This document shows, in pieces, positions 5,780-48,084 of a stretch of DNA of 51,270 nt. The stretch covers positions 1 to 51,270 of the forward strand of contig JAGVYP010000033.1 in NCBI GenBank assembly GCA_018303205.1. The letters are read 5' to 3'. The notes beneath the pieces are model-generated. The model did no database searches and had not been told where the DNA came from. It saw only the letters and a program-made list of their open reading frames with translations. The stretch comes from Candidatus Woesearchaeota archaeon. Lineage in GTDB: Archaea > Nanobdellota > Nanobdellia > Woesearchaeales > JAGWAF01. Made by a program: the position numbers and the translations under genes. Each line of letters starts with the position of its first letter. Within the stretch, counting starts at the first letter, position 1.

Positions 5780-6568
5780 ATGACAATAAGAGAAATTCAA
5801 CATGAAATTGATGATTCAATACCTGTAGAAAATGTATTGATCTCTGTTTTTGACAAAACTAATTTGGGAGAATTGGCAAATGGATTACTTGAAATAAATC
5901 CTGGTCTCAGAATTTTTTCTACAGGAGGAACATATATCGCATTAAGAGATAAAATTTTATCTCCAGACCAACAAGGATCTTTAATTACTGTTGAAGAATA
6001 TACAGATCTTCCTGAAATAGAAGGTGGTTTAGTAAAAACATTACATCCTTTGTTGCACACAGGATTATTAGGAGAGCGACATAATCCTGCACATCAAGCA
6101 TATTTACAAAGATTAAGTAGAAGAGTAACCTTATTTGGTCCTGATGGACAACCTGTAACTAATCCAGAACCTGGACAAAATTATACAGCAACAGTAACAC
6201 AAGGAAATGGCGTCTTCTTTGATTTAGTTGTTGTTAATTTATATCCTTTTGAAAGTGTATCTGTTGAACCAGGAGCGACATTTGAATCATCAAGAGGAAA
6301 CATTGATATTGGTGGACCAGCAATGTTGCGTGCAGCAGCTAAGAACTTTTTAAGTGCTGCACCTTTTATTGATCCAAAACGTTATGGAGAATTATTAGCT
6401 CATATAAGAGAAAATAGAGGTAGTACTCGTTTTGACTATAGAAGACAACTTGCAGGAGAAGTATTTGAGTTAACAGGTGGTTATGATACAGCAATTTCTG
6501 CTTGGTGGAAAACTCAAACTCCTGAAGCTGCAAGAGCAAGATACACTTTTGCTCAAAGAGGTGCATGA
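5780..6568 (+). CDS. purH: IMP cyclohydrolase domain of PurH (MGS-like), encoded as a separate ORF
   Basis: VLISVFDKTNL, STGGTYIAL, GGLVKTLHPLLHTGLL, FDLVVVNLYPF and NIDIGGPAMLRAAAKNF are all PurH N-domain signatures. The ORF ends at the TGA at 6566-6568. Confidence 0.9.
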   Translation: MTIREIQHEIDDSIPVENVLISVFDKTNLGELANGLLEINPGLRIFSTGGTYIALRDKILSPDQQGSLITVEEYTDLPEIEGGLVKTLHPLLHTGLLGERHNPAHQAYLQRLSRRVTLFGPDGQPVTNPEPGQNYTATVTQGNGVFFDLVVVNLYPFESVSVEPGATFESSRGNIDIGGPAMLRAAAKNFLSAAPFIDPKRYGELLAHIRENRGSTRFDYRRQLAGEVFELTGGYDTAISAWWKTQTPEAARARYTFAQRGA

Positions 6569-20382: not shown

Positions 20383-20754
20383 CTATACCAAAATCACTTT
20401 TAAATCATCAATTTGTTTTAAATCTTTATCTGCTGTTATAAGTTGAAGATCATGAATCATACAGATGGAGGCGATAAAAATGTCAAGTTTGCCTATCGGT
20501 TTCCCTTTTTTTGAGAGCGTTTCTTCAATGAGAACACTTTTTTGAGCAGCAGCTTCATCAAAAGGCAGGATATGCATTGTTTTTATAAATTCCTGAATAA
20601 TCTCTCTTTCTTTTCCTTGTACTCCTATACTTATTTCATTTAGCGTAATCGCACTCATAGCAGCTGCTTCATACAGAAGATATTGTTGTATCTCTTTGCC
20701 TTTCTGTGTTCCTCTGATGAGTTCAATAATTGCAGAAGTGTCCAGAACAATCAT
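20383..20754 (-). CDS. vapC: PIN-domain toxin (VapC)
   Basis: MIVLDTSAIIELI (first acidic residue) and LITADKDL (last acidic residue). It is 123 aa and lies one nt downstream of the antitoxin. Confidence 0.8.
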   Translation of the reverse strand: MIVLDTSAIIELIRGTQKGKEIQQYLLYEAAAMSAITLNEISIGVQGKEREIIQEFIKTMHILPFDEAAAQKSVLIEETLSKKGKPIGKLDIFIASICMIHDLQLITADKDLKQIDDLKVILV

Positions 20755-20755
20755 G

Positions 20756-21001
20756 TTAGCTCAGCTTATATTTTTTTGCTCTTTGAAGAAATTCCTTTTC
20801 AAGAGACATACGTCTTGATTTGACTTGTTGTTGAAGTTTTTTTCCTTCGAAAGAAGATACTGCGCCAAAAAATTTTGCTGCAGAACCCACTTTTTCCGTA
20901 GAGAGCCTGAGAATAACATCACTAAAGCTTTCATGCCCCATTTTGAGCGTTTTAAGAGCTTCATACGCATGTTCCGTAATGGTTAAGGACTTGATGACCA
21001 T
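20756..21001 (-). CDS. vapB: VapB-type antitoxin (archaeal putative-antitoxin family)
   Basis: LTITEHAYEALKTLKMGHESFSDVILRL matches the archaeal tItI..e.Ye.Lk..K...ESFSdvI.rL antitoxin pattern. Confidence 0.65.
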   Translation of the reverse strand: MVIKSLTITEHAYEALKTLKMGHESFSDVILRLSTEKVGSAAKFFGAVSSFEGKKLQQQVKSRRMSLEKEFLQRAKKYKLS

Positions 21002-23382: not shown

Positions 23383-24126
23383 TTATTTTTTATAATACTC
23401 ATCAAATTTCTGCTGTGCAAAAGTTTTCTTTTTTCTCTCATGCAATATCGTAAAGATCAAAATGACAATTAACAACACAAGGATAAAACCAATAACAACA
23501 AACACTGCAGTTCTTTTCGGTTGTATCGGTGGAGCTTCCTGCACTTCAGTAACGCTCGGAGCAAAATCAGGTTCTTCTAAAGGAGAAACAGCGTCTGTGA
23601 AACCCTCAGTAGGCAACTGACAATCAGGTTCTCCCGTTATACAATCACTGTCACAAATGCCATCTTGCTGATAAGAACAATATCCGTCACCGATAAGCGT
23701 ACAATCATCAGGACAGACAAGATTATTTTCTTTTTCCTGACAGATATCATCATGATTACAAAACAAACCTTCTATATTCTTTTCAAAAATCGTTTTTCCA
23801 TTCTTTTCAACACGCAACGCATTCCAAGTAGGATCACATAAGGCTTGAACAGAAGCACTGGTCTGATCTGTTTCTCCTACATCACTGATGTAAAAAATTG
23901 CAGGAACTCCTTTTTTGATGGTTGTTGCACCCTGAAACACAGCTTGATAAGACGAAGAGGAATGTCGATCATCTCTTGCTGTGTCATCAAATGCTGCATA
24001 ATCTCTTAATGTGACCTGATCATTTTTGTTTATCGAAAAGGTAAACTCACACACAGGAACAGCTATTGCTAGAGAAGAAAAAATAATAAAAAACAACAAC
24101 GTTGGAATTATGTTTTTGGTTTTCAT
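23383..24126 (-). CDS. Secreted Cys-rich protein with a C-terminal membrane anchor
   Basis: The start is set at MKTKNIIPTLLFFIIFSSLAIA (signal peptide). It has the Cys-rich block CNHDDICQEKENNLVCPDDCTLIGDGYCSYQQDGICDSDCITGEPDC and the C-terminal TM segment AVFVVIGFILVLLIVILIFTIL followed by KKK. Confidence 0.55.
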   Translation of the reverse strand: MKTKNIIPTLLFFIIFSSLAIAVPVCEFTFSINKNDQVTLRDYAAFDDTARDDRHSSSSYQAVFQGATTIKKGVPAIFYISDVGETDQTSASVQALCDPTWNALRVEKNGKTIFEKNIEGLFCNHDDICQEKENNLVCPDDCTLIGDGYCSYQQDGICDSDCITGEPDCQLPTEGFTDAVSPLEEPDFAPSVTEVQEAPPIQPKRTAVFVVIGFILVLLIVILIFTILHERKKKTFAQQKFDEYYKK

Positions 24127-24153
24127 TGTATACCTACCTTTATTTTTTGATAT

Positions 24154-24253
24154 GCACTCTTGCGGAGATCTGCTGCTTCCTTGTCGCAGATTTTGCGTCG
24201 GCAGCACTGCATGAATCGTGCTGCCTCCTGTTTTTGCTCCAAGGCAAGAGTGC
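24154..24253 (+). repeat. Copy A of a ~100-nt structured intergenic element (candidate ncRNA or recombination site); transcribed strand unknown
   Basis: GCACTCTTGC-GGAGA...CGCAGATTTTGCG-TC-GGCAGCAC-TGCATGAATC-GTGCTGCC-...TTTTGCTCCAAG-GCAAGAGTGC. Both the outer stem and the inner hairpin are perfect. Confidence 0.8.
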
Positions 24254-24271
24254 TATTTAAGTAAACAGTTT

Positions 24272-27200
24272 TCATGATATCGCATCTTTATCATCTCTTT
24301 GAAATCCACAGTACAGATCAGTCATACTACCCATAAACTCATAGTGTGTTTGTTCACCTGCACAAAATCCACTAATACCTTTTAATCTTTGCACATTATA
24401 AAGTTCATTTTCAGGCTGACCAGGACAATCAAGCTTAAGTGCATCAGTATCACAGTTAAGTGGGAATGTATTTAGACAACGATTAGGGGCTATATCTTGA
24501 AGATTATAGTCAGTAAACTTGTACACGTCACACAAACCAAAAGTGTGACCTAACTCATGGGACACAATACCTGCAGAACTCAACTGACCGTTTGTGACTA
24601 CAACTGATTCCCCATTACGACGTGTATACCCTAAAGTGTTATGTCTTTCCGGACTAAATAATTCAGTTCCTGATTTTCGAGAAAATCCAATAACTTTCTT
24701 ATAAGGTTTTCCAATAATATTTCTTAAAGCATCAGCACAGGTTTTAATATCGTCTAATAAAGTACCCATAAGCTCATCAGTCATATAAGTTTTTGAAGGA
24801 TCAAGAAGCGCTGTACATTTATCATTTTGTGCTAACCTCATTTGTTCTTCTGTAACTACAATAAAGCCTGTTCTTTCATTTTCAAAGTTTGTTGCCTTTT
24901 TGAAGATTTCAGAGCCTTTCATTGCAGCATCCCTATATCTTTCAAATTGATTACCTTGCCAACTATGCAAGGGAAGCCAATAGAAATAATCCGTACAATC
25001 ACCTGAGGTTATACAATCATCATCACCGTCATAACCTAATAAAGAACTTGATCCTGCTTGTCCTACCTTAATCGTAATCGTGCCTTGACCTGCTGAAGTT
25101 CCATCATATCTTGTAAATTGATAATTCAAAACATGATCCCCTCTTTCTCCTGAGTCAAAGTCTGCAAACCAAGTGTTAGGAGTGATAGTATGTTTTGTAA
25201 CCGTGAGACTAGTATCAGCATAAGAGATGGTCATAGGATCTGTTTGTTTTCCTTGATCATTAGTCGTGATAAGAACCTTTATTCGAGTATTTACAGGCAT
25301 TCTTCCATCATCAGGAGAATATCGCGCTCCGGTAGTAAGATCAATAAATTCAATATTAGTAATACCAGTTACTAACGGAGCACTTGCACTCCCTCCATCC
25401 CTGCTGCAGAGCACATTAAAAGTGATAGTTTTCTGTTGGAGTTCACCATTAAAAATGGTTATCGCATTTGATCTTGTCCAACCAGCACCTGTGGTAGAAC
25501 CTGCCCTTCCAGCATCATAAAGTGTAAAGGTAATACTAAAAGTGTCCTGATAACGAGCACTTCTTGCAGGATCTTGAGGATTACACTGGGTTTGTCCAGG
25601 AGAAGCATAACCACTTTGTCCTATGTTCATCCAGTTACCATCAAAACGAATAATAGGCCTATCAACAACGGTTTCACCATCAGTATTCAAAACAAAACGA
25701 GGATCAGGAATATTATAATTACTAGCAACTAATTGCCCGTGCTGATTTTTAATATCCCAAATAAGATATTTAGTAAACTCACATTCACCTGCAGAACATT
25801 GTTGAAGACCTGGAATGTCTTGTAAAATACGCAAATTGTTAAACTTAATTTCCTCATCCAAGATGAAGCCTTGTCTTCCTGAAAGATAGTTAGGAGTTAC
25901 ACTCTCAGGCTGAAGGAACCTAGCGCTACCCACACCTTCAAGAGTTTCTTCATATTGACAAGTAAACGCTCCTGCAACTTGTCTAAACTTACACTGAGGT
26001 GGATGAGCAGAGCCATGCGTTGTTATTCTCCTTTCTATAGGAGTTCCTTCAACATATTCGCCTTGATTATTCACATACTGGAATGTTAATCTTACCTTAT
26101 CAAAGCGCACTGCTTCCTGCAAATTTGCCTCATAGAGTTTTTCAAAGTTCGCTCCAGAACTTAATGAGCCAGTTTCTACAGTTCGAATAACTTTTCCGCT
26201 ACCCAATTCATGCGAGCCTGCACAATCACATCTTCCACCTTCAAAACCATAACCTGAACACGTATGATCATCTGAACACACTAATTGCAATTGGTACTGC
26301 ATATCAGCACCTGCATCAATAAGGAAAGGAACTGTATACCTATGCATAGGATACATGCTCACACCAAATCCTGGGCTCATAAATTCTCTCTGTGCTGAAA
26401 TAATAAAAGGCTGAGGAGCAATAGGAAGATCATTAATGCTATCTGTGATAATATCATCAAGATCAAGGTCATAATTTCCTGTAAAAGACCACAAACAAAT
26501 AGCATTCATCAATTTCTTCTCAAGGAATAAGTTCTTGTAAAAAGTAGTTCCCCCATATCTTTTACTTACACCGTCTGTAACCGTACTAAAGCCTTGCCTC
26601 ATAGCATACGTAATATCCCTTCCTGTTTGAACAACACCCCGTACAGCACTACTAATAAAACCAAGACCTAACCTGTCCATGGTTGTAGGAACTAAACTTT
26701 CCCCGCCAATACGAGAACCAGGAGCGTCACCAACCGTATTTACAACACACCGTAAAATATCTATAACCACATCACAAATACTTGCGCTTAACACTTCCTG
26801 ACAAACAGAAGGATCACCATTACCTGTGTACTGTACTTGTTTAAAGCAAGAAGACACTGCAGACAATCTTCCACGCCAGATTTCCAAAGATTTGTGTAAG
26901 CCACCAAGACAAACACACTGTGCACTTCTCAATAAAGAAGAAGTAGGATCAACAATATAAGGCTTATTCGCAGTTCCTAATTCCTGTTTTATTCTCACCC
27001 ACAAGCTTTGCACTAATGCAGGATTATCACAACCGCTAGGAATCCCAGTACAGAGTTTTGCTTTAAATAATTCGGGTGCTTGTTCTTGAGTAACAACTTC
27101 ACCAGTAAAAAATTCGCTCATATCAATTTGCCGATGAAACTTCTTCTGATCTTGAATGATACTATCACCATAAGGATCTGAAGGATTCACAGGAGAACCT

Positions 27201-30200
27201 TGCGTATCAAAATAGAAATAACCTCGTTCTACTTTTACAACTCCTCCTTCTGTTGTGAAAAGACCTCGTGTAGGATCTAATCTCATCACACGAACAATAA
27301 GTTCAGGACTACCTCTGGGCTCTGCCCATTGCGGAGCAAAGCCAGTAACATCAAGAGGATCTAAACCGGAAATGATTCCACTATAGCCACTTGCTGAAGC
27401 TCTTTCCTCAGTTGGCTCAATGGAAGTTGAGCGAGCAGGAATAGGAACTACTGTTGTTGCAATTCCTCCTTCATATTTCAGCGTCATACCTGTTCGCAAA
27501 TGCTGAGGAGCAACACCACCCAGTTTGTTACCCTTTGCTTCACACATTCCAGCAAGAGCATTAAAAAGCTTAGGACAACTGAGGGTTTCTCCTGGTGAAG
27601 GTGGACCGTCAAAACCCTCAGGTAACGGTATACTTAATGTTGGATCCACATTTTCGTTTTGCGCAGCATAACAAACACTTTGCTTCAACTCATTCATACC
27701 CAAGCACGCACTGTTCCACTCACCCATATACTCAACACCGCAACATTTGGAATCAGAAGGATGCAAGCCATAACAATTCAAATCAGTTTCTTTATACAGA
27801 TAAGGTGTTTCATCCCCCTTAAACCAAGAAGTAGGCTTTAACAAATTTGTACCATGCTTGTCTTTTTGAGTTTTATAATCCTCATAAATTGTTCTTACAC
27901 TATTATACGTTGTTGGGGTAATAAAGTTTCCAGCACTATTGGTTACTGCACAGCTACTTCCCCCATAATAATTCTTTCCTCTCACATTCACAACCGTAAG
28001 TGCTTGACTAGCTGCACCTACCTGTTGTTCTTTAATATAATTCTGCAACGTAGGAGCTGCAGGACAAGCAAGCCTGTCACCGAGCATGTTACCCCATCCT
28101 TGGATCTGCTTGAGTCTAAGAATTGCTTTAGAACATTCCATACACGTAAGATATTGTTCAGCATTCCCATCCTCACCCACTAAATATTTCTGATTGCATA
28201 AACCGTATCTTGCCACATTCACATCCAGAGGAGATTGACCATGAAACACAGAAAGCATACCTCGTCCTGTGCACTTCCACGCAGTTGTTCCTGCTTGCAC
28301 AAATTCAATAACCTTCATTCCACCCCAAAGCAAGAAAATCGTATTCTCCACTTTTCTAATAGGTTCTAAAACTTTATCAATAAGTTTTACAGCATCATCC
28401 AAAACCTTAGCTGTTCCTTCAAAAGCACCGGGAGCTAAAGATTGGAATGTAACTGTTTTATCAATGGCAATTTCAAACTTAGGATAACACACCTTCTGCA
28501 CTTTTGTTTCAGAAAGAAAATCACCTGTAACAGCTCCCCCAATTCCAGTTTGAGAAATAACACCTCCCTCAGGAGTAGTCTGATATCCAGGCCTGTTTTC
28601 AATATACTGAATTTCTAATTCCAAAGGAACTTTAATACAACCGTAGATATCACCCGCTAAGCCTTCTGCACACTCTCCTTTGTTAGTGTCTGCAATTTTA
28701 TCAAGACTCTCTTGCCTATCATCAGACTCCTCATCACCAAAATCATAACCATGAACACTGATACTTGCAGCTCCATGCTTAAACTCCCTGTCCCAAATAA
28801 GCGTAGGAGCACCTACTTGGTCTATTTGTTCTATCTCATCATGCTCCTGCCTGTTCAAAGGAGGAATGTGTAATGCAGGAGGCCTTGCAATTTGATAACG
28901 AGGATACTCCCTTCCATTGACAGTAAATTTTTCTTCAGAAGGATACGTAAGATGCAGAGTAAAGAACACTTCTGCAGTACCATCAAGAATTTCATCAGGA
29001 TGCACTAATCGTGTAGGAGCTTCAAGTTGCACACCAAATATCCCACTCTGCCCACACTTTGCAAAAATAAGATCATAGATATGATCATCAATGGTTTCAA
29101 AACCCGCAGAGTCAACTGCTTTTATTTTAACACGATTATGCCAGCCAGAACTCTCTGCAGAACCAACACTTGCTCCTGGAATGCTCGCTTCAAACAAGTC
29201 AGGATCTCGTGCTAATTCAACCTCTGCAGTAAAATAACCGGTATCATCAGTAGGCACAATCATCGTAGGAGTATCTGCATCAATATCCTCATTCACATAA
29301 ATATAGACTGCCGCAGGTTCTGTTATCTTTCCCCTAATTTTTGCAACATCATCATAAACAGGAGAAAGATCAGCAATATTAGTTTCTTCCATGACAAAAG
29401 CAGGAGCTTGCGTGTCGTACAAGATTTCAGCTATTTGTTCTGCAATGTTACCAGCAGCATCAACTACTCTAATTGTAATAAGATTTCTTCCTTCATAAAG
29501 CGTAACTGATTGAGTAAAAGGACCTTGTACTTGCGTTCCTTGACTTCCCCCACTTTGACAAGAAAGATCAACAGGAGTTAGAGTAGGAAGAGTTCCTCCA
29601 CTTCCATCAAATGCAACTTCCAACGGAGCACTCACATCACTCACACGACAATTACTCGTTACTCCTGCAACCGTAAAAAGAACCCGTGTTCCAGGAGCAC
29701 CCTGCTGAAAAACATACTCTTCCTGGGGAACTTCTGCAATGAGAATACCATTTGCATATACCGCATAAGAAGAGAAAGCAGGATCAAGATTCCAATGCAA
29801 GCGAGCAGTATCAGGACCTGCAGGATCAACAAGAATAGGAGGAGCAAGTACAGGAAGAGAAGATGCTCCTAGCAATTCAGCAGTAACCGAGAGTGTAACA
29901 GGCTCACTCACATCTCCTGAAATCTGAAATGCTGCAGAGACTGCCGCAGGAAGAGGTTGAAGAGTAAGAAGAGGAGGAGAAATATCTACCAAAACATTTT
30001 TTATGACCTCACTTGATGAACCACTTGCATCACTCACCACAACACGCACTTCATTAGTCTGGTCAGGCTGCAAAGGAACATCATAAAACATGACAAAGCC
30101 CGAATCACCTGTTTCTGTTGGTGAACTTACCCTTTTTCTTACGCCATTCACAAAAACTTCTACTTTTGCTCGAGGAATAGTTTGCACAGGAATATCTAAA

Positions 30201-30901
30201 CTTGTTCTTGAAGAAGCATCAGGAAGAGTTGTGTCCAATTGAATCTGCATCTGTGCACCTTCTCCTGCGCCTGCAACAAACGTTTCTGGATCAGAACGAG
30301 AACAAAGACCTGCCTCATTACAAGATTCTACAAAGAAATAATGCACTTGATCTCTTTGAGTAGGAATAATGAGTTCATGTTGTAATGCAGTACCCTGCGT
30401 GTCTCTTGATTGGTCAGGAGCTGTTAAACCATAATACACTTTAGTTGTTGCAGGAACATTGGTAGTCCAGGTTATTGCTGTTGTTCCTGGCGAAAGAACC
30501 CGTGCGCGAACATCTGAGATGACTGGAGGAATAGTGGGAGAAGATTCTTGCCCAAGAATAAATGTATAAAATTGTCCACTGTTATCATCCACAATACTTT
30601 CTTGGCTGTTAAAAGCAACGATTTGGTAATAATAACGCTGTCCTGGAATAAGACCCGCAAGATCAATCGTATGTGTGGTTCTTCTCGTGCTTCCTGGATT
30701 GGGTTGAAGTGCCATACTCTCTGATGTTGCTTGTTCGCTGTAGTAAATGTGCACGATACTATCCGGATTTGTTATAATGGAAAAGCGAACACTGCTGCCT
30801 GTTATGATTTCGACGGTGTTTTGGTCAATAGTTAATGCAAAAGAGAAAGGGAGCACTAGCAAAAAGCAGACTAGCAGTGTGAGGAACATTTTTTTGTTCA
30901 T
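24272..30901 (-). CDS. Giant (2209 aa) secreted Cys-rich surface protein with N-terminal FN3/Ig-like repeats and a C-terminal HEXXH zincin-like module
   Basis: Uninterrupted 6.6-kb ORF. The Sec signal is MNKKMFLTLLVCFLLVLPFSFA. There are two FN3-like units (..GQRYYYQIVAFN.., ..TAITWTTNVPATTKVYYG..). HELGH is encoded at 24545-24559 within IVSHELGHTFGLCDVY (HExxHxxGxxD, M64-like DxY context). Confidence 0.8.
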   Translation of the reverse strand: MNKKMFLTLLVCFLLVLPFSFALTIDQNTVEIITGSSVRFSIITNPDSIVHIYYSEQATSESMALQPNPGSTRRTTHTIDLAGLIPGQRYYYQIVAFNSQESIVDDNSGQFYTFILGQESSPTIPPVISDVRARVLSPGTTAITWTTNVPATTKVYYGLTAPDQSRDTQGTALQHELIIPTQRDQVHYFFVESCNEAGLCSRSDPETFVAGAGEGAQMQIQLDTTLPDASSRTSLDIPVQTIPRAKVEVFVNGVRKRVSSPTETGDSGFVMFYDVPLQPDQTNEVRVVVSDASGSSSEVIKNVLVDISPPLLTLQPLPAAVSAAFQISGDVSEPVTLSVTAELLGASSLPVLAPPILVDPAGPDTARLHWNLDPAFSSYAVYANGILIAEVPQEEYVFQQGAPGTRVLFTVAGVTSNCRVSDVSAPLEVAFDGSGGTLPTLTPVDLSCQSGGSQGTQVQGPFTQSVTLYEGRNLITIRVVDAAGNIAEQIAEILYDTQAPAFVMEETNIADLSPVYDDVAKIRGKITEPAAVYIYVNEDIDADTPTMIVPTDDTGYFTAEVELARDPDLFEASIPGASVGSAESSGWHNRVKIKAVDSAGFETIDDHIYDLIFAKCGQSGIFGVQLEAPTRLVHPDEILDGTAEVFFTLHLTYPSEEKFTVNGREYPRYQIARPPALHIPPLNRQEHDEIEQIDQVGAPTLIWDREFKHGAASISVHGYDFGDEESDDRQESLDKIADTNKGECAEGLAGDIYGCIKVPLELEIQYIENRPGYQTTPEGGVISQTGIGGAVTGDFLSETKVQKVCYPKFEIAIDKTVTFQSLAPGAFEGTAKVLDDAVKLIDKVLEPIRKVENTIFLLWGGMKVIEFVQAGTTAWKCTGRGMLSVFHGQSPLDVNVARYGLCNQKYLVGEDGNAEQYLTCMECSKAILRLKQIQGWGNMLGDRLACPAAPTLQNYIKEQQVGAASQALTVVNVRGKNYYGGSSCAVTNSAGNFITPTTYNSVRTIYEDYKTQKDKHGTNLLKPTSWFKGDETPYLYKETDLNCYGLHPSDSKCCGVEYMGEWNSACLGMNELKQSVCYAAQNENVDPTLSIPLPEGFDGPPSPGETLSCPKLFNALAGMCEAKGNKLGGVAPQHLRTGMTLKYEGGIATTVVPIPARSTSIEPTEERASASGYSGIISGLDPLDVTGFAPQWAEPRGSPELIVRVMRLDPTRGLFTTEGGVVKVERGYFYFDTQGSPVNPSDPYGDSIIQDQKKFHRQIDMSEFFTGEVVTQEQAPELFKAKLCTGIPSGCDNPALVQSLWVRIKQELGTANKPYIVDPTSSLLRSAQCVCLGGLHKSLEIWRGRLSAVSSCFKQVQYTGNGDPSVCQEVLSASICDVVIDILRCVVNTVGDAPGSRIGGESLVPTTMDRLGLGFISSAVRGVVQTGRDITYAMRQGFSTVTDGVSKRYGGTTFYKNLFLEKKLMNAICLWSFTGNYDLDLDDIITDSINDLPIAPQPFIISAQREFMSPGFGVSMYPMHRYTVPFLIDAGADMQYQLQLVCSDDHTCSGYGFEGGRCDCAGSHELGSGKVIRTVETGSLSSGANFEKLYEANLQEAVRFDKVRLTFQYVNNQGEYVEGTPIERRITTHGSAHPPQCKFRQVAGAFTCQYEETLEGVGSARFLQPESVTPNYLSGRQGFILDEEIKFNNLRILQDIPGLQQCSAGECEFTKYLIWDIKNQHGQLVASNYNIPDPRFVLNTDGETVVDRPIIRFDGNWMNIGQSGYASPGQTQCNPQDPARSARYQDTFSITFTLYDAGRAGSTTGAGWTRSNAITIFNGELQQKTITFNVLCSRDGGSASAPLVTGITNIEFIDLTTGARYSPDDGRMPVNTRIKVLITTNDQGKQTDPMTISYADTSLTVTKHTITPNTWFADFDSGERGDHVLNYQFTRYDGTSAGQGTITIKVGQAGSSSLLGYDGDDDCITSGDCTDYFYWLPLHSWQGNQFERYRDAAMKGSEIFKKATNFENERTGFIVVTEEQMRLAQNDKCTALLDPSKTYMTDELMGTLLDDIKTCADALRNIIGKPYKKVIGFSRKSGTELFSPERHNTLGYTRRNGESVVVTNGQLSSAGIVSHELGHTFGLCDVYKFTDYNLQDIAPNRCLNTFPLNCDTDALKLDCPGQPENELYNVQRLKGISGFCAGEQTHYEFMGSMTDLYCGFQRDDKDAIS

Positions 30902-30933
30902 GGTATTTTTTATATTGTCTTGTTTCTTTTTAT

Positions 30934-31070
30934 TTTTTTATCAATATTTTTTGTGTATTTTTCAATGATATTTTATCAAATGTCTATTTTTTGTAATCTT
31001 CTTATTTTATCAATGTTTTTTGTGAATTTATTTTTTTAATGAATTCTTTATCAAACGTCCTGTTTTAATT
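30934..31070. repeat. Three to four degenerate ~35-bp tandem repeats between element copy B and the giant-gene start
   Basis: TTATCAA[TA] boxes start at 30938, 30973, 31007 and 31048. The first three are each followed by TTTTTTGT[GA]. Confidence 0.55.
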
Positions 31071-31075
31071 TTTTC

Positions 31076-31176
31076 GCACCATTGCGGAGACTTACTGTTC
31101 CGTTGATCGCAGATTTTGCGTCGAAGCTGCTGCATGAATCGCAGCTTCTCCTGGTTTTGCTCCAAGGCAATGGTGC
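31076..31176 (+). repeat. Copy B of the same element
   Basis: GCACCATTGC-GGAGA...CGCAGATTTTGCG-TC-GAAGCTGC-TGCATGAATC-GCAGCTTC-...TTTTGCTCCAAG-GCAATGGTGC. Relative to copy A, the substitutions in both stems are compensatory. Confidence 0.8.
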
Positions 31177-31208
31177 TTTGTGTGTTATTCCTCTTTTTTG
31201 TAACATTT

Positions 31209-33215
31209 TCATGTGAAGCTCGGTTGTAAGGCAGTGTTTAATCTTCCTGAATATATTTGGTCAAAGAGACGCATTTGATAGTTTTCATCTTCAAGATTGA
31301 TAGGTCTTGATTCAAGCACATAAAAAGTTATGGTTTGCGCCCCTCCAATATCTGAGTAGGAAATGGTCAAGTTTTCATCATGATAACCTCCTACGATAGT
31401 ACCCATCTGCGTATGCATAAGATCTGCTTCATACTGTGCAGTATCATCAATAAGTTCTATCAGAGTAGCATTTTCTTCATTCGGCCAGTCATAAATAATG
31501 TCATACTCAACACCTTTAGGATGCAAATAAAGCGAAATTTCGTCTTGAACGCGCAGATCTTCCTGAGGATAGAAAGCTTGATCTTCTTCACTAGAATACA
31601 CATACGGAAGTTTCTTAATTGCAATATTCAACTTTCTGAGCTTAAGCATTTCGACAGTTAATGCTCTTTCTGTCAATTGTGCTGTTGCTGGTAAATACCC
31701 TTCCTTAGTAAAAGTGATAAAAGGATTACCGCAAGAGCTAGGAATATTTGTTGTAAGCACATTTGCTCCTTGTCTGGCAACAATAGTTCCCAACTCACAA
31801 TGATTACTAAAACACGTAGAGCTTACGTTTACATTAGTAAGTTCTGACTGATACCCATATGCGTCATAACCTATAGCTTTGAAATCAAAAAAGATATCTC
31901 CTCTTTCTTGACAAAATTCTTCTCCAACACTATAATCAGTAAATTGTTGTTCACTGTACACTCCCCTACTTGGTTCATTATGATGCACTAACACGGTAAA
32001 GGCAAACTTGAAATTGTACCCTTCACCACGATAACTCTCATCATCACGCACAGTAACAAGCACAGGATAGATAACATCGTACGTAAAATGATACTGATTC
32101 ATACACAGAAAGCGCAACCAGATAGGAAATTGTGAAGCAACATTACTCTGCAAAAACCCATTCGTATTAGGATGCCCATTAAAGTTCATATCCCAATAAG
32201 GACTATAATGAAACTTTACTTTCAAATCATTTTCCGGAGTTCCCACATCAAAGAATCCATGAAAATACGCAAACCTGTCATCAGGAAGATCATCCCTATC
32301 AGGCCATTCAATGGATTGAAGATCCTCATAACTTTCAGAACCCTCAAGAGACTCCTGAATTCTTTCATATTCATCACGCAACTCCTCATAGACACTTTCA
32401 TCCTGCAAGAAAGGGGTATATTGCGTATCTTTCACACGAACCTGATTAAGTACTTCACTCATAAGTTTTTTATTTTTTTCTTCCAAAACATCAAGACGCC
32501 ACTTCTCAGGACGACAACTAAACACAAGACCATCAAAAGGAAGTTCCTTACTCAAGATCATAGCATCAAGAGTTAATTTTTCAAGAAACTGCTGCTCATT
32601 CTCTGCATACATAATTCTTTTCGCAAGCTCATACACCTTCTTGATGCGCACGGGAATATTTGTTGTAAAATCTTTCAACGCTACACTACGTTCTTTACCA
32701 ATAAGGTCTGCCTGCAAAGGCCAAGCAAGACGCACCGTAACATCATTTTCTGTAAAGAGAACACTCGCTTGAGGAGGAGCTTCTTGCACGATTTTATATT
32801 GCGGAAAAGCAGCAAAGCTTTGCACACAGAATGCTAGTCCTTGTTCAACATGCAGTTTTACCTCATTTTGCATAAAAGGAATACTGGGAATTCTTAACTC
32901 ATTATTATAAGACCAATACGGAACTTTAAGCAAAGCATTACTATCTAAAGGAAGAAAGCTTGCCCTCATTCTAGAAATCGTATTAGGAAGCTGCACATAA
33001 CCTCCTTGATTAGCCATAATATTAAGCGCTTCTTGACCTAACGTGTTCATACAACTCTTGACATACTCATAGATAGGCTTGGCATCTTCAGGAACAAGAG
33101 CTTCTTCTACATTAATCTGTTCTTTCGATTGAATCATGTAGATAATGAGACCAGCAGAAATAATAATAATCAGGCCAATAATGATAAAGACCGTGATCTG
33201 ACCCCTCTTTCCCAT
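31209..33215 (-). CDS. Large (668 aa) protein with an archaeal class III (type IV pilin-like) signal peptide
   Basis: The N-terminus MGKRGQITVFIIIGLIIIISAGLIIY has [KR]-G-Q followed by a hydrophobic helix, as in EppA/PibD-processed archaeal pilins. The remainder is unassigned. Confidence 0.5.
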   Translation of the reverse strand: MGKRGQITVFIIIGLIIIISAGLIIYMIQSKEQINVEEALVPEDAKPIYEYVKSCMNTLGQEALNIMANQGGYVQLPNTISRMRASFLPLDSNALLKVPYWSYNNELRIPSIPFMQNEVKLHVEQGLAFCVQSFAAFPQYKIVQEAPPQASVLFTENDVTVRLAWPLQADLIGKERSVALKDFTTNIPVRIKKVYELAKRIMYAENEQQFLEKLTLDAMILSKELPFDGLVFSCRPEKWRLDVLEEKNKKLMSEVLNQVRVKDTQYTPFLQDESVYEELRDEYERIQESLEGSESYEDLQSIEWPDRDDLPDDRFAYFHGFFDVGTPENDLKVKFHYSPYWDMNFNGHPNTNGFLQSNVASQFPIWLRFLCMNQYHFTYDVIYPVLVTVRDDESYRGEGYNFKFAFTVLVHHNEPSRGVYSEQQFTDYSVGEEFCQERGDIFFDFKAIGYDAYGYQSELTNVNVSSTCFSNHCELGTIVARQGANVLTTNIPSSCGNPFITFTKEGYLPATAQLTERALTVEMLKLRKLNIAIKKLPYVYSSEEDQAFYPQEDLRVQDEISLYLHPKGVEYDIIYDWPNEENATLIELIDDTAQYEADLMHTQMGTIVGGYHDENLTISYSDIGGAQTITFYVLESRPINLEDENYQMRLFDQIYSGRLNTALQPSFT

Positions 33216-36305: not shown

Positions 36306-37700
36306 ATGATGCCCGATTTTTCATCTTCTACCTTTTATCCAGAAGGAAAAAGATTTTGCTATTTTTATATGCATTACCTCATTGTGCATCAATCTTGTCG
36401 TAAGAAAGGACCTTGGCCACATCACGTAAATGTTCTCGCAGGGTATAAGAATCATCTTGCAGATTGGTATATCAGAGTAGAATCTTATGATCAATTTGAT
36501 GACTATCTTCATCGATTTATGAAAAAAGCTTCTTTATTAGAAGAACTAGAGAAGTACACTCTTAAAATAAAAAATGAAACCGTGAAAAGATTAAAAAAAA
36601 TACCTGATGATACAAGAGAATTAAAAAAGTTAGTTACGTATTATTATCAGCAAATAGAAAATATTATTTTAGTAGCCGGTACTTTACGTTGCGTTGATAG
36701 ATCACTGCTCAAAAAATTCAAGAGCATATTACCTCATGAAGAAGCCATAGCATTAGCGTCCATAAGCGAAAGACCAAGTTTTACGTCAGAAGAAGAAAAA
36801 GCATTGCTTCAACTTGCACTACAACTCAAAAAGCAAAAAAGACAACCCACAAAACAAGATGTTTTACCCATAAAAAACACATTTTGCTGGTCAGGAATGG
36901 GGTACTATAATGAAAAACCAAAAACGATTGAAACTTATCTTATTTTAGTGAAAGAAATGTTAAAAAAAGATCCGCAAAGTATCTTAGAACAAAGAAAGCA
37001 ACATCTCAAAAAAGATCTCACACAAAGAAAAAAACTCATCAGTACGCTTAGTAAAGAAGGAAAATTACTCGCACAAATTGCTGCTACCAGTAGCTTTCTA
37101 AAAGACTATTACAAAGCAAACACCAATGAAATAACCTATCACGGAGAAAAACTCTTTACAAAAATAGCAGAAAAAACCCATACCCCTTCAGAAATGATAA
37201 AAGACCTTCTCCCAGAAGAAACAAATAATTTGCTAGACAAAAAAGAAATAGATTGGACCACTGTCAAAGAACGTATAAAACAAAGTATTTGCATAACAGA
37301 TGAAAAAAAAATAAGCATCCTGATAGGAAAAGAAGCAGAGACCTTTGAAAAAAAATATTTGTCTTGCCAAGATAAAAATAAGAACAGTTTTAAGGGAAGA
37401 ATAGCGTGCAAAGGAAGAGCAAAGGGAAAAGCAAAGATTATTCTTGGTACAAAAGATTTTCACAAACTCAAAAAAGGAGACATCCTTGTAGTGTCCAATA
37501 CAAGCCCTGATTACATACCCATCCTCACCAAGGCAGTGGCTATTATTGCAGAAGAAGGAGGATTAACAGCACATGTTTCTTTAGTGAGTAGAGAATTAAA
37601 CATCCCCTGCATCGTAGGCATCCCTAACATTGTTACTCTCCTTAAAGATAATGAAGAAATAGAAGTTAACGCTAATAAGGGTATCGTGAGGAAATTATAA
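36306..37700 (+). CDS. PpsA/rifampin-phosphotransferase-like protein lacking an ATP-grasp half: helical N-domain plus PEP-utiliser swivel (phosphohistidine) domain, paralog 1
   Basis: The C-terminus GRIACKGRAKGKAKII...GDILVVSNTSPDYIPILTKAVAIIAEEGGLTAHVSLVSRELNIPCIVG...IEVNANKGIV is the PEP-utilisers mobile domain with its conserved His. Confidence 0.8.
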   Translation: MMPDFSSSTFYPEGKRFCYFYMHYLIVHQSCRKKGPWPHHVNVLAGYKNHLADWYIRVESYDQFDDYLHRFMKKASLLEELEKYTLKIKNETVKRLKKIPDDTRELKKLVTYYYQQIENIILVAGTLRCVDRSLLKKFKSILPHEEAIALASISERPSFTSEEEKALLQLALQLKKQKRQPTKQDVLPIKNTFCWSGMGYYNEKPKTIETYLILVKEMLKKDPQSILEQRKQHLKKDLTQRKKLISTLSKEGKLLAQIAATSSFLKDYYKANTNEITYHGEKLFTKIAEKTHTPSEMIKDLLPEETNNLLDKKEIDWTTVKERIKQSICITDEKKISILIGKEAETFEKKYLSCQDKNKNSFKGRIACKGRAKGKAKIILGTKDFHKLKKGDILVVSNTSPDYIPILTKAVAIIAEEGGLTAHVSLVSRELNIPCIVGIPNIVTLLKDNEEIEVNANKGIVRKL

Positions 37701-39136
37701 TGATCAAATGGGCTTGGCAATTTCAACGTATGATGGACCTGTTGCGTAGTCATAGTTTTGCAACAGCATTTGCTAACAATCTCAAAAATCTTGCTTATCT
37801 TACGAGAAATGGTAAAGTGGACTGTTATTGGGATGATGACATGGCAGATAAAAAATCATTAGAATACCTTGCACAAATAAAAGCTTCTCCAAAATTTCTT
37901 CAAGACTGGTCAAAAAATTGTGAGAAAAAATGTAAAGCGTTAGTAGAATTTGCAAAAAATACGCACAAAAAAGACATCAAAAGACTTTCAATCGAAGAAA
38001 TTTACCAACTTTATGATGTATTTGTTTCTTTAAACACCCATGCAGGTTTTTTTGCTTGGTTTATTAGGTGTATTGTTCATAAAGCAGTTCCTGAATTTGA
38101 AAAGCTTTTAAAACAAAAAGTTGGTAATGAGGAAAAATTTCAAAAATATCGAAACATATTAACAGCAACTTCAAAAGAAAGTTTTGTGGGTGAAGAAGAG
38201 CGAGAAATACATGCATTAGCTTTTGAAATTATCGAGAAAAAACTTGAATTAAATGATGATAAGGTAATACAAAAAATAAAAAAACATGAAGCTAAATTCA
38301 AATGGATTCCTTGCAGTTATTATGATGAAGAGCCTTATAAAACCGAATATTTCTTACAAAAAATAAAACATATCATCGATGATCAACAAACAGCAAAAAG
38401 AGTATTACACACAATAAAAGGTATGAGGAAGAAATTACAGCAACAACAAGAAAAAATAATGAAAGAACTAGATTTTGATGAACCAACACAAAATCTTATC
38501 CAGTGTCTCCAAGAATGCGTTTACTATAAAGATTTTGTCAGAGGAGCATTAAACAAAAGCTATTGTTATCTCTATCCTTTTTTTGAAGAATTGGGAAAAC
38601 GATGTAATCTTAGCAAAAGAGAAATTAAATATTTATTTCCAGAGGAAGTGAAAGAAACATTATTCAACAATAAAGACTATATCCCACTTATCAAAGAAAG
38701 AATAAAATTTAATGTTTTGATAAATAAAGATGGTAAATTGATAACGTTGTTTGGAAAAGAAGCGCAAGCATTAGTTGATGAAATTGAACAAGCAACCGTA
38801 AAAGAAGTTACCGAAATTAAGGGCATGTGTGCAAGTCCTGGTTACGCAAAAGCCAAAGTAAAAATAGTCATAGATTTTGGCGATATTCAAAATGAAACCC
38901 ATGACTTTATTCTTGTGGCAAGCATGACAACTCCAGAATATACCGTAGCGATGGAAAAAGCATTAGCTATTGTAACAGACGAAGGCGGAATTACGTGCCA
39001 TGCGGCTATTGTTGCTCGGGAAATGAATAAGCCCTGTGTTATCGGAACGAAAATAGCAACAAAAGTCTTCCATCACGGCGATATCATTGAAGTAGATGCT
39101 AATAAAGGTATCGTGAGAAAGATCCAAAAGGCTTAA
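37700..39136 (+). CDS. Same family, paralog 2
   Basis: The C-terminus is GMCASPGYAKAKVKIV...FILVASMTTPEYTVAMEKALAIVTDEGGITCHAAIVAREMNKPCVIG...IEVDANKGIV, with the His codon at 38999-39001. Its start overlaps the paralog 1 stop (ATAATGA). Confidence 0.85.
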   Translation: MIKWAWQFQRMMDLLRSHSFATAFANNLKNLAYLTRNGKVDCYWDDDMADKKSLEYLAQIKASPKFLQDWSKNCEKKCKALVEFAKNTHKKDIKRLSIEEIYQLYDVFVSLNTHAGFFAWFIRCIVHKAVPEFEKLLKQKVGNEEKFQKYRNILTATSKESFVGEEEREIHALAFEIIEKKLELNDDKVIQKIKKHEAKFKWIPCSYYDEEPYKTEYFLQKIKHIIDDQQTAKRVLHTIKGMRKKLQQQQEKIMKELDFDEPTQNLIQCLQECVYYKDFVRGALNKSYCYLYPFFEELGKRCNLSKREIKYLFPEEVKETLFNNKDYIPLIKERIKFNVLINKDGKLITLFGKEAQALVDEIEQATVKEVTEIKGMCASPGYAKAKVKIVIDFGDIQNETHDFILVASMTTPEYTVAMEKALAIVTDEGGITCHAAIVAREMNKPCVIGTKIATKVFHHGDIIEVDANKGIVRKIQKA

Positions 39137-39172: not shown

Positions 39173-40168
39173 ATGATTGACATTGACAAGATTATTCAGG
39201 AAAAAGCAAAAGAACGCAAAGCAAAAATCGTTATCGCAGAAGGCTGGGATGAAAGAGTCTTACGAGCAGTACATGATCTCAAAAACATGGCACAGTTTGT
39301 TCTGCTAGGAAATCCAAAAACTATTCTTGAAAATGTAAAAAAATGGAACTTAGACATAGGAAAAACAGAAATCATCGACCATCTTAAAACAAAAGAAAAA
39401 GAAGAACTCGCACAAAAACTCTTTGAGCTGAGAAAAGAAAAAGGATTAACACTTCCAGAAGCACAAGAACTCGTCAAAGATGTCAACTATTTTGGCTGCA
39501 TGATGGTCTTTACAGGAAAAGCTGAAGGAGTAGCAAGCAGCGTCATTTGCCCAACAGCAGCAATCATGAGACCCGCACTGCAAATCTTAAAGAAAAAAGG
39601 AACCTTAGCAAATGAGTTTTCTGTGATGAAAGACAAAAAAAACAATCGCGTCTTATTCATGACAGACGGCTCATTAAATATTAATCCAAGCTCAGAAGAT
39701 CTTGCAAACATCGCAAAGAACTCTGCAGAGTTTGTACAATCACTGGATGTTACTCCCAAAGTTGCTTTTCTGAGCTTCTCGACCAAAGGCAGCGGAGGAG
39801 ATGGTCCTGAAGTCATGATTGTGAGAAAAGCAACAAAACTCTTCAAAGAAAAAATGCCTTCTGTTATTTGTGACGGAGAAATGCAATTTGACGCAGCAAC
39901 AAATCCTTATGCTGCTGGTAGAAAATGTCCTGATTCCCCTCTTAAAGGAGATGCTAATATTCTTGTGCTTCCCAACTTAACTGCGGGAAATATTCTTTTC
40001 CATGCTCTCATGCAAGTTTCAGACGTAATCATGGCCTATGGTTTTATTCTCGGAACAGCAAGACCAGTGACCATCTTGGGAAGAAGTACCTCTTTGGAAA
40101 TCGTCAAAGGAGCATTACTAGCTAACATGATGGAATGCAACTTAAAAGCAGATGAAAAACATTCTTGA
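39173..40168 (+). CDS. pta: Phosphate acetyltransferase (Pta, PTA_PTB family)
   Basis: IVIAEGWDERVLRAV, ELRKEKGLT..A, YFGCMMV..GKAEGVAS, FMTDGSLNINPS, VAFLSFSTKGSG, DGEMQFDAA and LVLPNLTAGNILFH track the Pta consensus along its full length. Confidence 0.9.
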   Translation: MIDIDKIIQEKAKERKAKIVIAEGWDERVLRAVHDLKNMAQFVLLGNPKTILENVKKWNLDIGKTEIIDHLKTKEKEELAQKLFELRKEKGLTLPEAQELVKDVNYFGCMMVFTGKAEGVASSVICPTAAIMRPALQILKKKGTLANEFSVMKDKKNNRVLFMTDGSLNINPSSEDLANIAKNSAEFVQSLDVTPKVAFLSFSTKGSGGDGPEVMIVRKATKLFKEKMPSVICDGEMQFDAATNPYAAGRKCPDSPLKGDANILVLPNLTAGNILFHALMQVSDVIMAYGFILGTARPVTILGRSTSLEIVKGALLANMMECNLKADEKHS

Positions 40169-41612
40169 AATAATAAGAAAAAGAAATTGGCACAGACAAG
40201 GAGGCGCTGCAGTACTCCATCTCATGGTTACACCACTGTTTCCAGCAGTAGAAGGCCTCTATCAGGAAACAGGAGTAAGTTACGGTATGACTGTTGCATA
40301 TTCTCAAAAAGGCTTAGGAAACTGGTACCTCGAAAAAACTTATTTGAAAGAAATGGGAGACCATTTTTTGAAAAAAACAAAAAAAGAATTGCAAGAAATA
40401 AAAAAAGAATGGAAAAAAAGAGACAACATTTTTCAAAAAGAAGTACAAAAAATATTGTCAATGGATCTTAAGAAACTTGATGAGAAAAAAATATTGCAAA
40501 TCTACAAAAAATTTTATGAGATCAATTACTCCATGTGGATTCCCTACGTGTTTTGCGATGCCTACGACCTTACCGGAGAAAACATCATCAAAGAAAGACT
40601 AGAAAAACAAAAAATAACATTAACTGATCAAGAAATTCACATAATGCTCGCTACCGAAGAGCCCTCGTGGTCACAACGAGAAAAAATAAATCTCCTCAAG
40701 TTGAACATTGAAGCAAGCAAGAAAAAGAATTTTTTACACGATAACCTCTTTCTTGCAAAAGTGCAAAAACATCGTGATACCTATTACTGGTATAAGAATG
40801 ACTATCAAAAAGTATGGAGTTTAGATCTCAACTATTTTCTTGAAAAAATACAAAAAGGAAAAGAACATCCTCAAGCTTGCAAGCAAGAACTTGAAAAAAT
40901 TGAACAAGAACAGCAACAAACCAAAAAAAATAAAAAATTAATAGTCAAACAAAAGAAAATTCCTAAAAACACAGTAGAACTCTTTGACTTCTTTGCTTTA
41001 ATCACCCAATGGAGGGATTATAGAAAAAGAAACAATCAGATCAGCAATGAAGTACTTGTTACTTTGCTCAAAGCATTAGGAGAAAAAAGAAAAATACCTC
41101 TTGCAGCTATGTTATACACACTCCCTCAAGAAGTACTGCAAGAGACCATTCCTAACAAAGAAATACTACAAAAAAGAGAGGAAGAGGGATGCATACACCT
41201 TCTTATAAGAGAAGAGAAACCCTTATTGTTAGAAGGAAAAGAAGTAAATGACTTCAAAAAAGAACTTGATAAAAAATTATTTAATGAGATAAAAGAATTA
41301 AAAGGAATGGTAGCATTTAGTGGAAAAGTAAAAGGGATCGTAAAAATAATAAGACAATCAAGCGACTTTCAAAAATTTAAACAAGGAAACATTCTCGTAG
41401 CACAAATGACAAGACCTGAATATCTTCCTTTAATGGAAAAAGCTGCAGCAATAATCACAGACGAGGGAGGAATTACGTGCCACGCTGCTATCGTTGCAAG
41501 AGAATTAAAAAAAACTTGCATCGTCGGAACGGGAAATGCAACTGACATCTTAAAAGATTGTATGGAAGTTGAAGTGGATGCTGAAAAGGGAGTAGTGAAG
41601 ATTATACACTAA
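40152..41612 (+). CDS. Same family, paralog 3
   Basis: The C-terminus is GMVAFSGKVKGIVKII...GNILVAQMTRPEYLPLMEKAAAIITDEGGITCHAAIVARELKKTCIVG...VEVDAEKGVV. It overlaps the pta 3' end by 17 nt. Confidence 0.85.
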   Translation: MKNILEIIRKRNWHRQGGAAVLHLMVTPLFPAVEGLYQETGVSYGMTVAYSQKGLGNWYLEKTYLKEMGDHFLKKTKKELQEIKKEWKKRDNIFQKEVQKILSMDLKKLDEKKILQIYKKFYEINYSMWIPYVFCDAYDLTGENIIKERLEKQKITLTDQEIHIMLATEEPSWSQREKINLLKLNIEASKKKNFLHDNLFLAKVQKHRDTYYWYKNDYQKVWSLDLNYFLEKIQKGKEHPQACKQELEKIEQEQQQTKKNKKLIVKQKKIPKNTVELFDFFALITQWRDYRKRNNQISNEVLVTLLKALGEKRKIPLAAMLYTLPQEVLQETIPNKEILQKREEEGCIHLLIREEKPLLLEGKEVNDFKKELDKKLFNEIKELKGMVAFSGKVKGIVKIIRQSSDFQKFKQGNILVAQMTRPEYLPLMEKAAAIITDEGGITCHAAIVARELKKTCIVGTGNATDILKDCMEVEVDAEKGVVKIIH

Positions 41613-46370: not shown

Positions 46371-46594
46371 TGTAAAGCTTTATGTCTTTTTGCCATCCCT
46401 GCTTTGACTTTTCTTCCCAGTTCTATAGCATCTTCTTCTGTGAGAGTGCTATCCTTAGTAAATTCTCGAAATTGTCTTAACAAGGAAAGTTTCTTCTGAA
46501 TAGCAGATCTCGCAACAGCGCTCCAATTAATATCTTGGAATTTGTCCATTTCTTGTTTCATCTCTTCAGGTACTGCCAATGTTATACTTACCAT
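46367..46594 (-). CDS. Ribbon-helix-helix (CopG-like) antitoxin
   Basis: MVSITLAVPEEMKQEMDKFQDINWSAVARSAIQKKL is an RHH pattern. The start is set at the internal ATG at 46594 rather than 46663. Confidence 0.55.
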   Translation of the reverse strand: MVSITLAVPEEMKQEMDKFQDINWSAVARSAIQKKLSLLRQFREFTKDSTLTEEDAIELGRKVKAGMAKRHKALQ

Positions 46595-46701
46595 AAAAAC
46601 ACCTCCGTATATTACGTTTATTACGTGTAATACGTTTAAATATTTAAATCTTTCGGTTTGCACTCTAAAACATTTAAAAACTCAAGCCTTTTCTTTAGGC
46701 T

Positions 46702-47814: not shown

Positions 47815-47871
47815 ACCATAAAATAAAAAGGATAACGAAGCTGTACTGTCCTCAGGTTGAAGAAGTACATT

Positions 47872-47973
47872 GTGATCATTGCCTTGGAGCAAAACCAGAA
47901 AAACAAGCGATTCATGCAGCTTGTTTTTCGCAAGATCTGCGACAAGGGAGCAGTATGTCTCCGCAATGATCAC
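47872..47973 (-). repeat. Copy C of the same element (inverted orientation)
   Basis: The reverse complement reads GTGATCATTGC-GGAGA...CGCAGATCTTGCG-AAA-AACAAGC-TGCATGAATC-GCTTGTT-...TTTTGCTCCAAG-GCAATGATCAC. Confidence 0.8.
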
Positions 47974-48084
47974 AAAAAAGATAAAAAGGTGATAAGCAGC
48001 AAACCTCCGTGATGACCCCATCAAAAAATTCTACAAGGTAAAAATAGAAAAAATTGATAAAAAGATTATAACAAAAGTCAAAGA

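Follow-up and report, generated by a model that had tools for sequence, protein, structure and literature searches.

The three similar segments found in the window, i.e. the whole stretch of 51,270 nt of Candidatus Woesearchaeota DNA that was analysed, are probably copies of a dispersed repeat of the MITE type, a non-autonomous DNA transposon known so far only from the Woesearchaeota/Nanoarchaeota group of DPANN archaea. This reading is based on insertion polymorphism, terminal repeats, target-site duplications and copy number. The region of ~100 nt to which the original prediction drew attention is the conserved interior of the element. Insertion is intergenic, in either orientation and often exactly at gene junctions. 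We found no published description of the element family or of its conserved fold.

The three copies and their surroundings

The window belongs to the chromosome of a DPANN archaeon of low GC content; it includes a purine-biosynthesis operon and genes for PIN toxins and for ribosomal protein S6e, and no tRNA gene was found in it. The contig is also part of the ENA assemblies ERZ27254845/ERZ27254754. A covariance model (R1) built from 23 homologues detects exactly three copies, A at 24154-24253 (+), B at 31076-31176 (+) and C at 47870-47975 (-), with scores of 101-111 bits (E ~1e-31 to 1e-35), and no further site in the window at E<=1. The copies lie where they had been predicted, copy C extending to the limits given here. 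Their alignment has a mean identity of 81%, the stems holding most of the differences. The stems quoted in the original prediction are exact, except that the outer stem of copy C (TTGTGATCATTGC/GCAATGATCACAA) is longer than announced; the inner stem of this copy has 11 bp. Within the window, exact matches to the 16-mer TTTTGCTCCAAGGCAA and the 10-mer TGCATGAATC are limited to the three copies. As DNA, either strand of the copies folds better than 200 of 200 shuffled sequences (z -2.7 to -6.5). Each copy is intergenic, and in all three cases the sense strand of the flanking genes is the reverse complement of the orientation used in the prediction. A small conserved ORF across the element was rejected because indels break the frame: the 1-nt indel between copies A and B disrupts any common reading frame.

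In the model orientation the conserved core of copy A (24154..24253, + strand, 107.3 bits) is a three-way junction. The two arms of P1 are at 24154-24163 (5') and 24244-24253 (3'). The invariant GGAG (24164-24167) faces CUCC (24237-24240), followed by the AAG bulge (24241-24243). The P2 hairpin occupies 24173..24189, CTGC pairing with GCAG (24173-24176 with 24186-24189) around a pyrimidine-rich loop of 9 nt. The P3 hairpin (24197..24228) has G24197-C24228 as its closing pair, a stem formed by 24200-24207 with 24218-24225, and the invariant loop TGCATGAATC at 24208-24217; all these parts are on the + strand.

Copy A lies between two exact copies of an 8-mer, GTTTTCAT (ATGAAAAC on the minus strand). 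The one at 24119..24126 contains the start codon of the downstream 247-aa gene, and the one at 24268..24275 provides the TGA stop of the 2209-aa gene. The orthologue of the downstream gene in the syntenic relative L237 itself begins ATGAAAAC. These 8-mers look like an 8-bp target-site duplication flanking an insert of 141 nt. The whole inserted unit of copy A would thus probably be 24127..24267 (+), i.e. an arm of 27 nt, the core and an arm of 14 nt; its tips, TGTATAC and GTAAACA, form a weak inverted repeat (6/7 match). With such a duplication, insertion at a gene junction leaves both reading frames intact.

The core of copy B (31076..31176, +, 101.1 bits) has P2 at 31095-31112, P3 at 31120-31151 and the P3 loop at 31131-31140, in a spacer of 307 nt (30902..31208). 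That of copy C (47870..47975, -, 111.4 bits) has a P1 of 13 bp, P3 at 47898-47929 and the loop at 47909-47918, in a spacer of 270 nt (47815..48084). For these two copies we sought clean element boundaries and a target-site duplication, and neither could be defined. The homology between their long outer arms is not significant (score 66, against a mean of 62 after shuffling), and terminal repeats are clear in the window for the inner arms (P1) only.

On the gene-sense strand, each of the three copies is closely preceded by one of the 12 CATGAAAA words of the window, at 24269-24276, 31206-31213 (minus) and 47800-47807 (plus); in each case this word overlaps the upstream gene at its end. Its position could reflect a preferred target, the terminus of the element or an effect of gene junctions, where stops and starts overlap. 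Words akin to CATGAAAA (AATGAAAA, CATTAAAA and CATCAAAA) are also observed downstream of the window copies.

Several features of the genes of the window were observed in passing. The 2209-aa protein (24272-30901, -) is a secreted protein with weak fibronectin/cadherin-like matches and a C-terminal HExxH motif; its single full-length homologue, P0002, is 43% identical, and in both cases synteny with a 668/671-aa protein, itself without a Pfam match, is conserved. Between 36306 and 45977 there are five paralogous genes (36306-37700, 37700-39136, 40152-41612, 43113-44621 and 44673-45977) whose sole Pfam match is the C-terminal mobile domain of PEP-utilising enzymes. They surround a phosphotransacetylase gene (39173-40168), an arrangement also present in L234 and L239. 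A Bro-N domain protein is encoded at 42238-43068. In the purine operon two adjacent ORFs, 5780-6568 and 6572-7939, share between them the match to AICARFT/IMPCHase (purH). The PIN-domain toxin genes at 45966-46663 and 20383-21001 each have a small upstream partner, a ribbon-helix-helix protein in the case of the former.

Fold and covariation of the core

The consensus fold of the family is a three-way junction made of P1, the GGAG/CUCC helix with its AAG bulge, P2 and P3. P1 has 10-13 bp and, like P3, is free in sequence while keeping its Watson-Crick pairing. The pairing of GGAG with CTCC across the AAG bulge, which had been put forward as an extension of the outer stem, is a helix conserved family-wide: it has 4 bp, is nearly invariant, and carries the 3-nt bulge on its 3' strand. 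That it is a genuine helix follows from one variant, GAAA/UUUC, which keeps the pairing. P3 (10-11 bp) has an AU-rich base and a GC-rich top, with a C-G pair closing the invariant loop UGCAUGAAUC, of which UGCAUAAAUC and UGCACCAAUC are variants.

P2 is a short variable helix (CUGC/GCAG) over a pyrimidine-rich loop, and longer alternative forms of it exist. The hairpin CGCAGAT[TC]TTGCG (CGCAGATTTTGCG) predicted in this region has no support outside the window; the conserved helix of this region is P2. In some relatives the P2 domain carries insertions of 42-63 nt. Within one near-identical family, L194, L198, L204 and L233 differ from L205 by 42-47 nt inserted into the P2 loop, with a short CGT repeat flanking the insertion; at the same place L200 and L217:12098 have a different, branched insertion of 62-63 nt.

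The words quoted as invariant are confined, within the window, to the three copies. Family-wide, few invariants are left: besides some junction bases, these are the P3 loop (C)UGCAURAAUC(G) and GGAG/CUCC with its AAG bulge. Even TTGC/GCAA covaries across the family (TCAC/GTGA, CCGC/GCGG).

The compensatory changes from which a real fold had been predicted are borne out on two alignments. With 40 sequences, 92.4% of the cells are paired versus 65.2% after shuffling, and double changes occur at 27 of the 29 pairs. An independent set of 60 sequences gives 89.9% versus 62.2%. When the partner is slid by 1-3 columns, pairing amounts to 35-48%.

An RNA made from one strand normally has a large excess of G·U over A·C pairs, and an A·C pair is a G·U pair on the opposite strand. 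Here the counts of G·U and A·C are 26/23, 32/36 and 35/41, each about 2% of the cells. With G·U pairs just as infrequent as A·C pairs, neither strand has the look of an RNA under selection. This, together with the mixed orientation of the copies, goes against the functional folded RNA that the original prediction favoured. On the reverse strand A is enriched in the unpaired positions, of which it makes up 33%.

Copies of one metagenome have identical P1 and different P3 stems; orthologous copies with ~80%-identical flanks have entirely different P3 stems; and between two near-identical loci one segment of the junction has been replaced as a block. These patterns suggest short-tract exchange between copies, anchored on the invariant segments, which would swap whole stems. 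Part of the apparent covariation would then be due to such swapping, which probably shuffles entire stems between copies. The diversity of the stems must nevertheless have arisen under a constraint of pairing.

Empty sites, element ends and distribution

For all three copies of the window we found syntenic relatives in which the site is free of the element. Sites A and B are empty in L237, which gives no covariance-model match; in this relative the genes for the orthologous proteins of 671, 2148 and 229 aa are separated by gaps of 91 nt (the spacer corresponding to that of copy B) and roughly 10-35 nt. Site C is empty in L238 (protein 86% identical), where the acetyltransferase gene overlaps the next gene. 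Additional pairs of filled and empty sites are provided by L026 vs L211 and by L004 vs L201.

In several lineages the element has terminal inverted repeats and clear target-site duplications of 7-9 bp. In the lineages with young copies the core sits inside a sharply bounded unit of 155-225 bp. Overall, cores are 100-110 nt and whole units 141-225 nt long, and they are non-coding. The terminal repeats are perfect over 12-13 bp in two lineages, and a third has an 11-bp subterminal repeat. One lineage has the ends GGTAAAGTCAAC...GTTGACTTTACC and, in three copies, duplications of 7-8 bp (TATTTTA, TTTAATC and CTGATTTA). Another has the ends GGCTAATATGAA...TTCATATTAGCC and 9-bp duplications in 3-4 copies (GAACTTTAA, ATTTTTCTC and CTTGTCTGT/CTTGTTTGT). 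The ends CCACATTGAAAAGTT.../...AACTTTTCAATATCGCC are common to at least 9 contigs, many of which are broken at the repeat. Exact direct repeats of at least 9 nt flank 17% of the copies, versus 4% in mismatched-flank controls; for direct repeats scoring at least 8 the values are 20% and 8.7%. Presence/absence polymorphism and target-site duplications thus indicate that the element arrives by insertion. The claim that covariation excludes a transposable element is not supported in view of the empty sites, the terminal repeats, the duplications and a copy number of at least 15 in single MAGs.

A few loci show more complex arrangements. In L193/L201 and in L006 a lone remnant of the 3' end (GCTCCAAGGCAC, CGTCCAAGGCGA) lies 10-12 nt downstream of a full copy; L193 and L201 share the right flank and not the left one. 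In L310 two copies are head to head (384-491 and 476-583). The remnants and the L310 pair look like nested insertion, recombination between copies or assembly chimeras. Beside the element of L004, at ~4100-4200 on the reverse strand, a non-coding block of ~100 nt (TTCAAGGAAGACCGT...GGACTGTGTAGTACGGACAATTGGTAACGGCGG) with a counterpart in L201 is conserved far better than the rest of the spacer; this block may be an RNA gene.

Homologues were sought by pattern scans of one genome per species with several different anchors, chosen so that no single conserved block was presupposed, and by one metagenome scan; all candidates were confirmed by the covariance model. This search of relatives, which the original prediction had proposed as a check, gives ~130 matches above 60 bits, nearly all in MAGs and metagenomes of Candidatus Woesearchaeota/Nanoarchaeota, and chance pattern matches in bacteria do not exceed 31 bits. 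No match was found among IMG/VR loci, phage records or plasmid records, and a viral, phage or plasmid origin was rejected for this reason. By exact-anchor scans alone, there are at least 15 copies in A_NAN_12, at least 15 in MFD02832.bin.4.205 and at least 12 in UBA10207.

A few element-bearing MAGs are labelled Methanosarcinales or Euryarchaeota. Those named "uncultured Methanosarcinales archaeon" and "Euryarchaeota archaeon SM23-78" have several copies (loci L038, L076, L091, L017, L061, L250, L281, L284, L292, L300 and others). The Methanosarcinales-labelled loci L017, L038 and L076 have genes in common with Woesearchaeota loci. Mislabelling is one possible cause, joint binning of DPANN contigs with those of their hosts another.

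Relative to the neighbouring genes, the orientation classes number 13 (--), 12 (++), 9 (+-, convergent) and 5 (-+, divergent), counts that are approximate because gene calls in high-GC loci are crude. One copy lies between two divergent TATA boxes (leaderless promoters). The copies lie ~10-60 nt from a stop codon. Copies A and B have the same orientation, as have three copies in L217; in L004, L008 and L230 neighbouring copies are mutually inverted. The neighbours are unrelated housekeeping genes: an all-against-all BLAST and a Pfam search of 150 neighbouring ORFs yielded no recurrent partner gene, and we found no conserved TATA box, promoter or terminator at a fixed distance from the element. 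The flanks of ~65 copies, taken in the model orientation, differ in composition: pyrimidines prevail over the 15 nt that precede P1 (T 40-54%, A 11-25%), and the downstream side is mildly A-rich. This polarity is a property either of the element or of the target.

Mechanism, alternatives and relation to known systems

We propose that the element is moved by an enzyme whose gene lies elsewhere in the genome and which cuts the target in a staggered manner. The duplication lengths fit several DDE families and are diagnostic of none. The conserved core would be the part recognised by a conserved factor, on folded DNA (hairpin, cruciform or single strand) rather than on RNA of a given strand. During mobilisation the stems would give the shape, and the loops and the bulge the sequence contacts. 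Folded DNA is suggested by the strand-symmetric pairing, by an orientation that is free with respect to transcription and by the presence of at least one copy between divergent promoters; recognition by a conserved factor is favoured because the core is conserved across lineages whose tips differ. A role of the core as RNA is possible, as a processing or protein-binding module that makes insertions in operons tolerable. We retain it because of the intact cores of old copies, the A-rich loops of the reverse strand and the modular, RNA-like architecture. More tentatively, the core might be a functional module for a conserved DPANN factor, its stems varying and being swapped between copies: either the folded-DNA site of an undescribed, structure-guided mobility, or a transposon-borne small RNA selected at each insertion. 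The element would be of more interest if its core had a function of its own.

Some observations fit poorly with a MITE. The tips differ by lineage and the interior is conserved, the reverse of ordinary IS/MITE families. The length of the duplication apparently varies (7-10 bp, with one case of 15), and in many copies neither a duplication nor an outer repeat can be recognised. The copies of one MAG lack recognisable outer arms, yet their core is perfect. That old copies keep a perfect core when their arms have decayed hints that selection acts on each inserted copy, at the level of the host or for an RNA function; alternatively, this could be a lineage with short arms. Terminal-repeat and Pfam searches of the examined loci and of the window revealed neither an autonomous element nor a transposase with matching ends. 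One genome-wide scan for autonomous copies with the lineage-specific terminal repeats, which include GGCTAATATGAA, GGTAAAGTCAAC and ATTGAAAAGTT, was empty.

Other readings account for part of these data. Small structured non-coding RNA genes that form a family, or an RNA module on an element, with a conserved cellular partner, are an unlikely explanation; the P3 loop and the junction would then be a binding or catalytic surface, spread by duplication or by hitch-hiking on a transposon. The architecture does look like that of an RNA: the stems covary, the loops are invariant, the 3-nt bulge is conserved, and P2 is of variable length and receives insertions; old copies with decayed outer arms retain an intact core, the loops of the reverse strand are A-rich as in real RNAs, and in 3 of 3 window copies this strand is the sense strand of the flanking genes. 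But G·U is not in excess on either strand, no promoter or terminator is conserved at a constant distance, the copies point either way relative to genes and have unrelated neighbours, one copy lies between divergent promoters, and polymorphism and target-site duplications show arrival by insertion. Rfam 15 contains no match at gathering thresholds or at E<=10, the best hits being noise at E>0.7; the original prediction, too, had named no matching RNA family. A match to Rfam or to a MITE had been named as grounds against the original prediction: the former is absent, and the element is a MITE in kind, though no previously named MITE matches. We judge even less probable a folded single-stranded DNA site for recombination or transposition of the attC, REP/REPIN or IS200/IS605 kind, handled by a tyrosine recombinase or an HUH enzyme without staggered cuts. 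This second option of the original prediction comes closer to the data than its RNA options. The pairing is Watson-Crick only and strand-symmetric. As in attC sites, loops and the extrahelical AAG are conserved with free stems; copies directly follow gene ends, and copies A and B, like the three of L217, have one orientation. However, several lineages have clear duplications and terminal inverted repeats, which attC, REP and IS200 systems do not make; neither RYYYAAC/GTTRRRY boxes nor a GTAG head are seen at the base of the stem; the window and the neighbouring loci contain no gene for an integrase, a Y1 or a RAYT-like protein; and neighbouring copies can be mutually inverted.

A cis-acting mRNA element for the adjacent gene (3'-UTR stabiliser, processing site or riboswitch) is the least credible reading, with hardly any chance of being right. 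It would agree with the short distance of copies from stop codons and with copy A lying inside a former operon junction, where it must be transcribed. It is largely refuted by the mixed orientation and by orthologous genes that lack the element in relatives; moreover the neighbours are unrelated housekeeping genes, and insertion at gene junctions accounts for the proximity to gene ends. A riboswitch or 3'-UTR element was rejected on the same mixed orientation and unrelated neighbours. Specific RNA motifs were rejected as well. The pairs flanking the AAG bulge are Watson-Crick and not the tandem G·A of a kink-turn. The 4-bp helix and one 3-nt bulge fit an archaeal bulge-helix-bulge on the reverse strand, but the second bulge and the inner helix are missing. 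The motifs of hammerhead, twister or pistol-like cores are absent, as are those of retron-like ncRNAs, and there is no adjacent reverse transcriptase. A guide-like function was discarded because no relation of the variable stems to the flanking target was seen in families that share the core and have different duplications.

DPANN genomes are tiny and tightly packed, and an element present in at least 15 copies in single MAGs, often at gene junctions, marks recent genome change. It is also a practical cause of broken assemblies. The usual rule of transposon families is inverted, since the tips vary and the folded interior is conserved; this anatomy may point to a new partner protein, or to recognition by DNA or RNA shape. 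The element is also a cautionary case: covariation of textbook quality does not by itself prove a functional RNA, and it has to be complemented by orientation, by comparison with empty sites and by a check of whether wobble pairs are strand-symmetric.

Hairpin-folding MITEs of prokaryotes include the Correia elements of Neisseria, ERIC and RUP/BOX, and archaea have MITEs such as SM1 of Sulfolobus. Like them, as far as is generally known, the element is short and non-coding, with many dispersed intergenic copies in either orientation, terminal inverted repeats, short target-site duplications and insertion polymorphism between relatives, and would be co-transcribed with its neighbours when inserted in operons. 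Unlike them, it has lineage-variable tips around an internal module of ~100 nt conserved group-wide, this module is a branched, asymmetric fold with invariant loops and heavy covariation, and no cognate transposase was found in the loci examined. In a census of MITEs, a Woesearchaea genome is among the most MITE-dense archaeal genomes (PMC11602168).

The element resembles candidate structured RNAs of the Rfam type by its multi-stem junction, covariation, conserved loops and one stem with insertions of variable length; it differs from them by the lack of wobble strand asymmetry and of a fixed genetic context, and by its behaviour as a mobile repeat. The PATE elements derived from IS200/IS605 have subterminal hairpins, neither terminal repeats nor duplication, and insert 3' of a fixed tetranucleotide; here, terminal repeats and duplications are present and no flanking tetranucleotide is fixed across lineages.

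With the REP/REPIN-RAYT system (PMC3116915) the element has in common extragenic, highly repeated hairpin units whose structure is conserved above sequence; these bacterial units are thought to act as folded single-stranded DNA. REPINs are simple hairpins made of two REPs, with a GTAG head and no target-site duplication, whereas the element is a three-way junction with duplications; it has no GTAG head, and the window and neighbouring loci have no RAYT-like gene. Like integron attC sites, it is defined by its fold, has extrahelical bases, lies just after ORFs and would function at the level of single-stranded DNA. Unlike them, it has no R/L core boxes, integrase or cassette arrays, occurs in both orientations and has flanking duplications. 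The attC core sites (RYYYAAC ... GTTRRRY) are absent: the stem base is variable, and the conserved part is TTGC-GGAG / CUCC-AAG-GCAA. A Pfam search of the window gave no integron integrase or recombinase, and the copies are dispersed and sometimes inverted. The DUF1874 motif has been discussed as a possible complex attC (PMC5737381); it is in Rfam, yet the Rfam search gave no match to the element. Without the defining features of REPINs and attC sites, the element is one that behaves as a hairpin-forming MITE and has in common with both the principle of structure over sequence.
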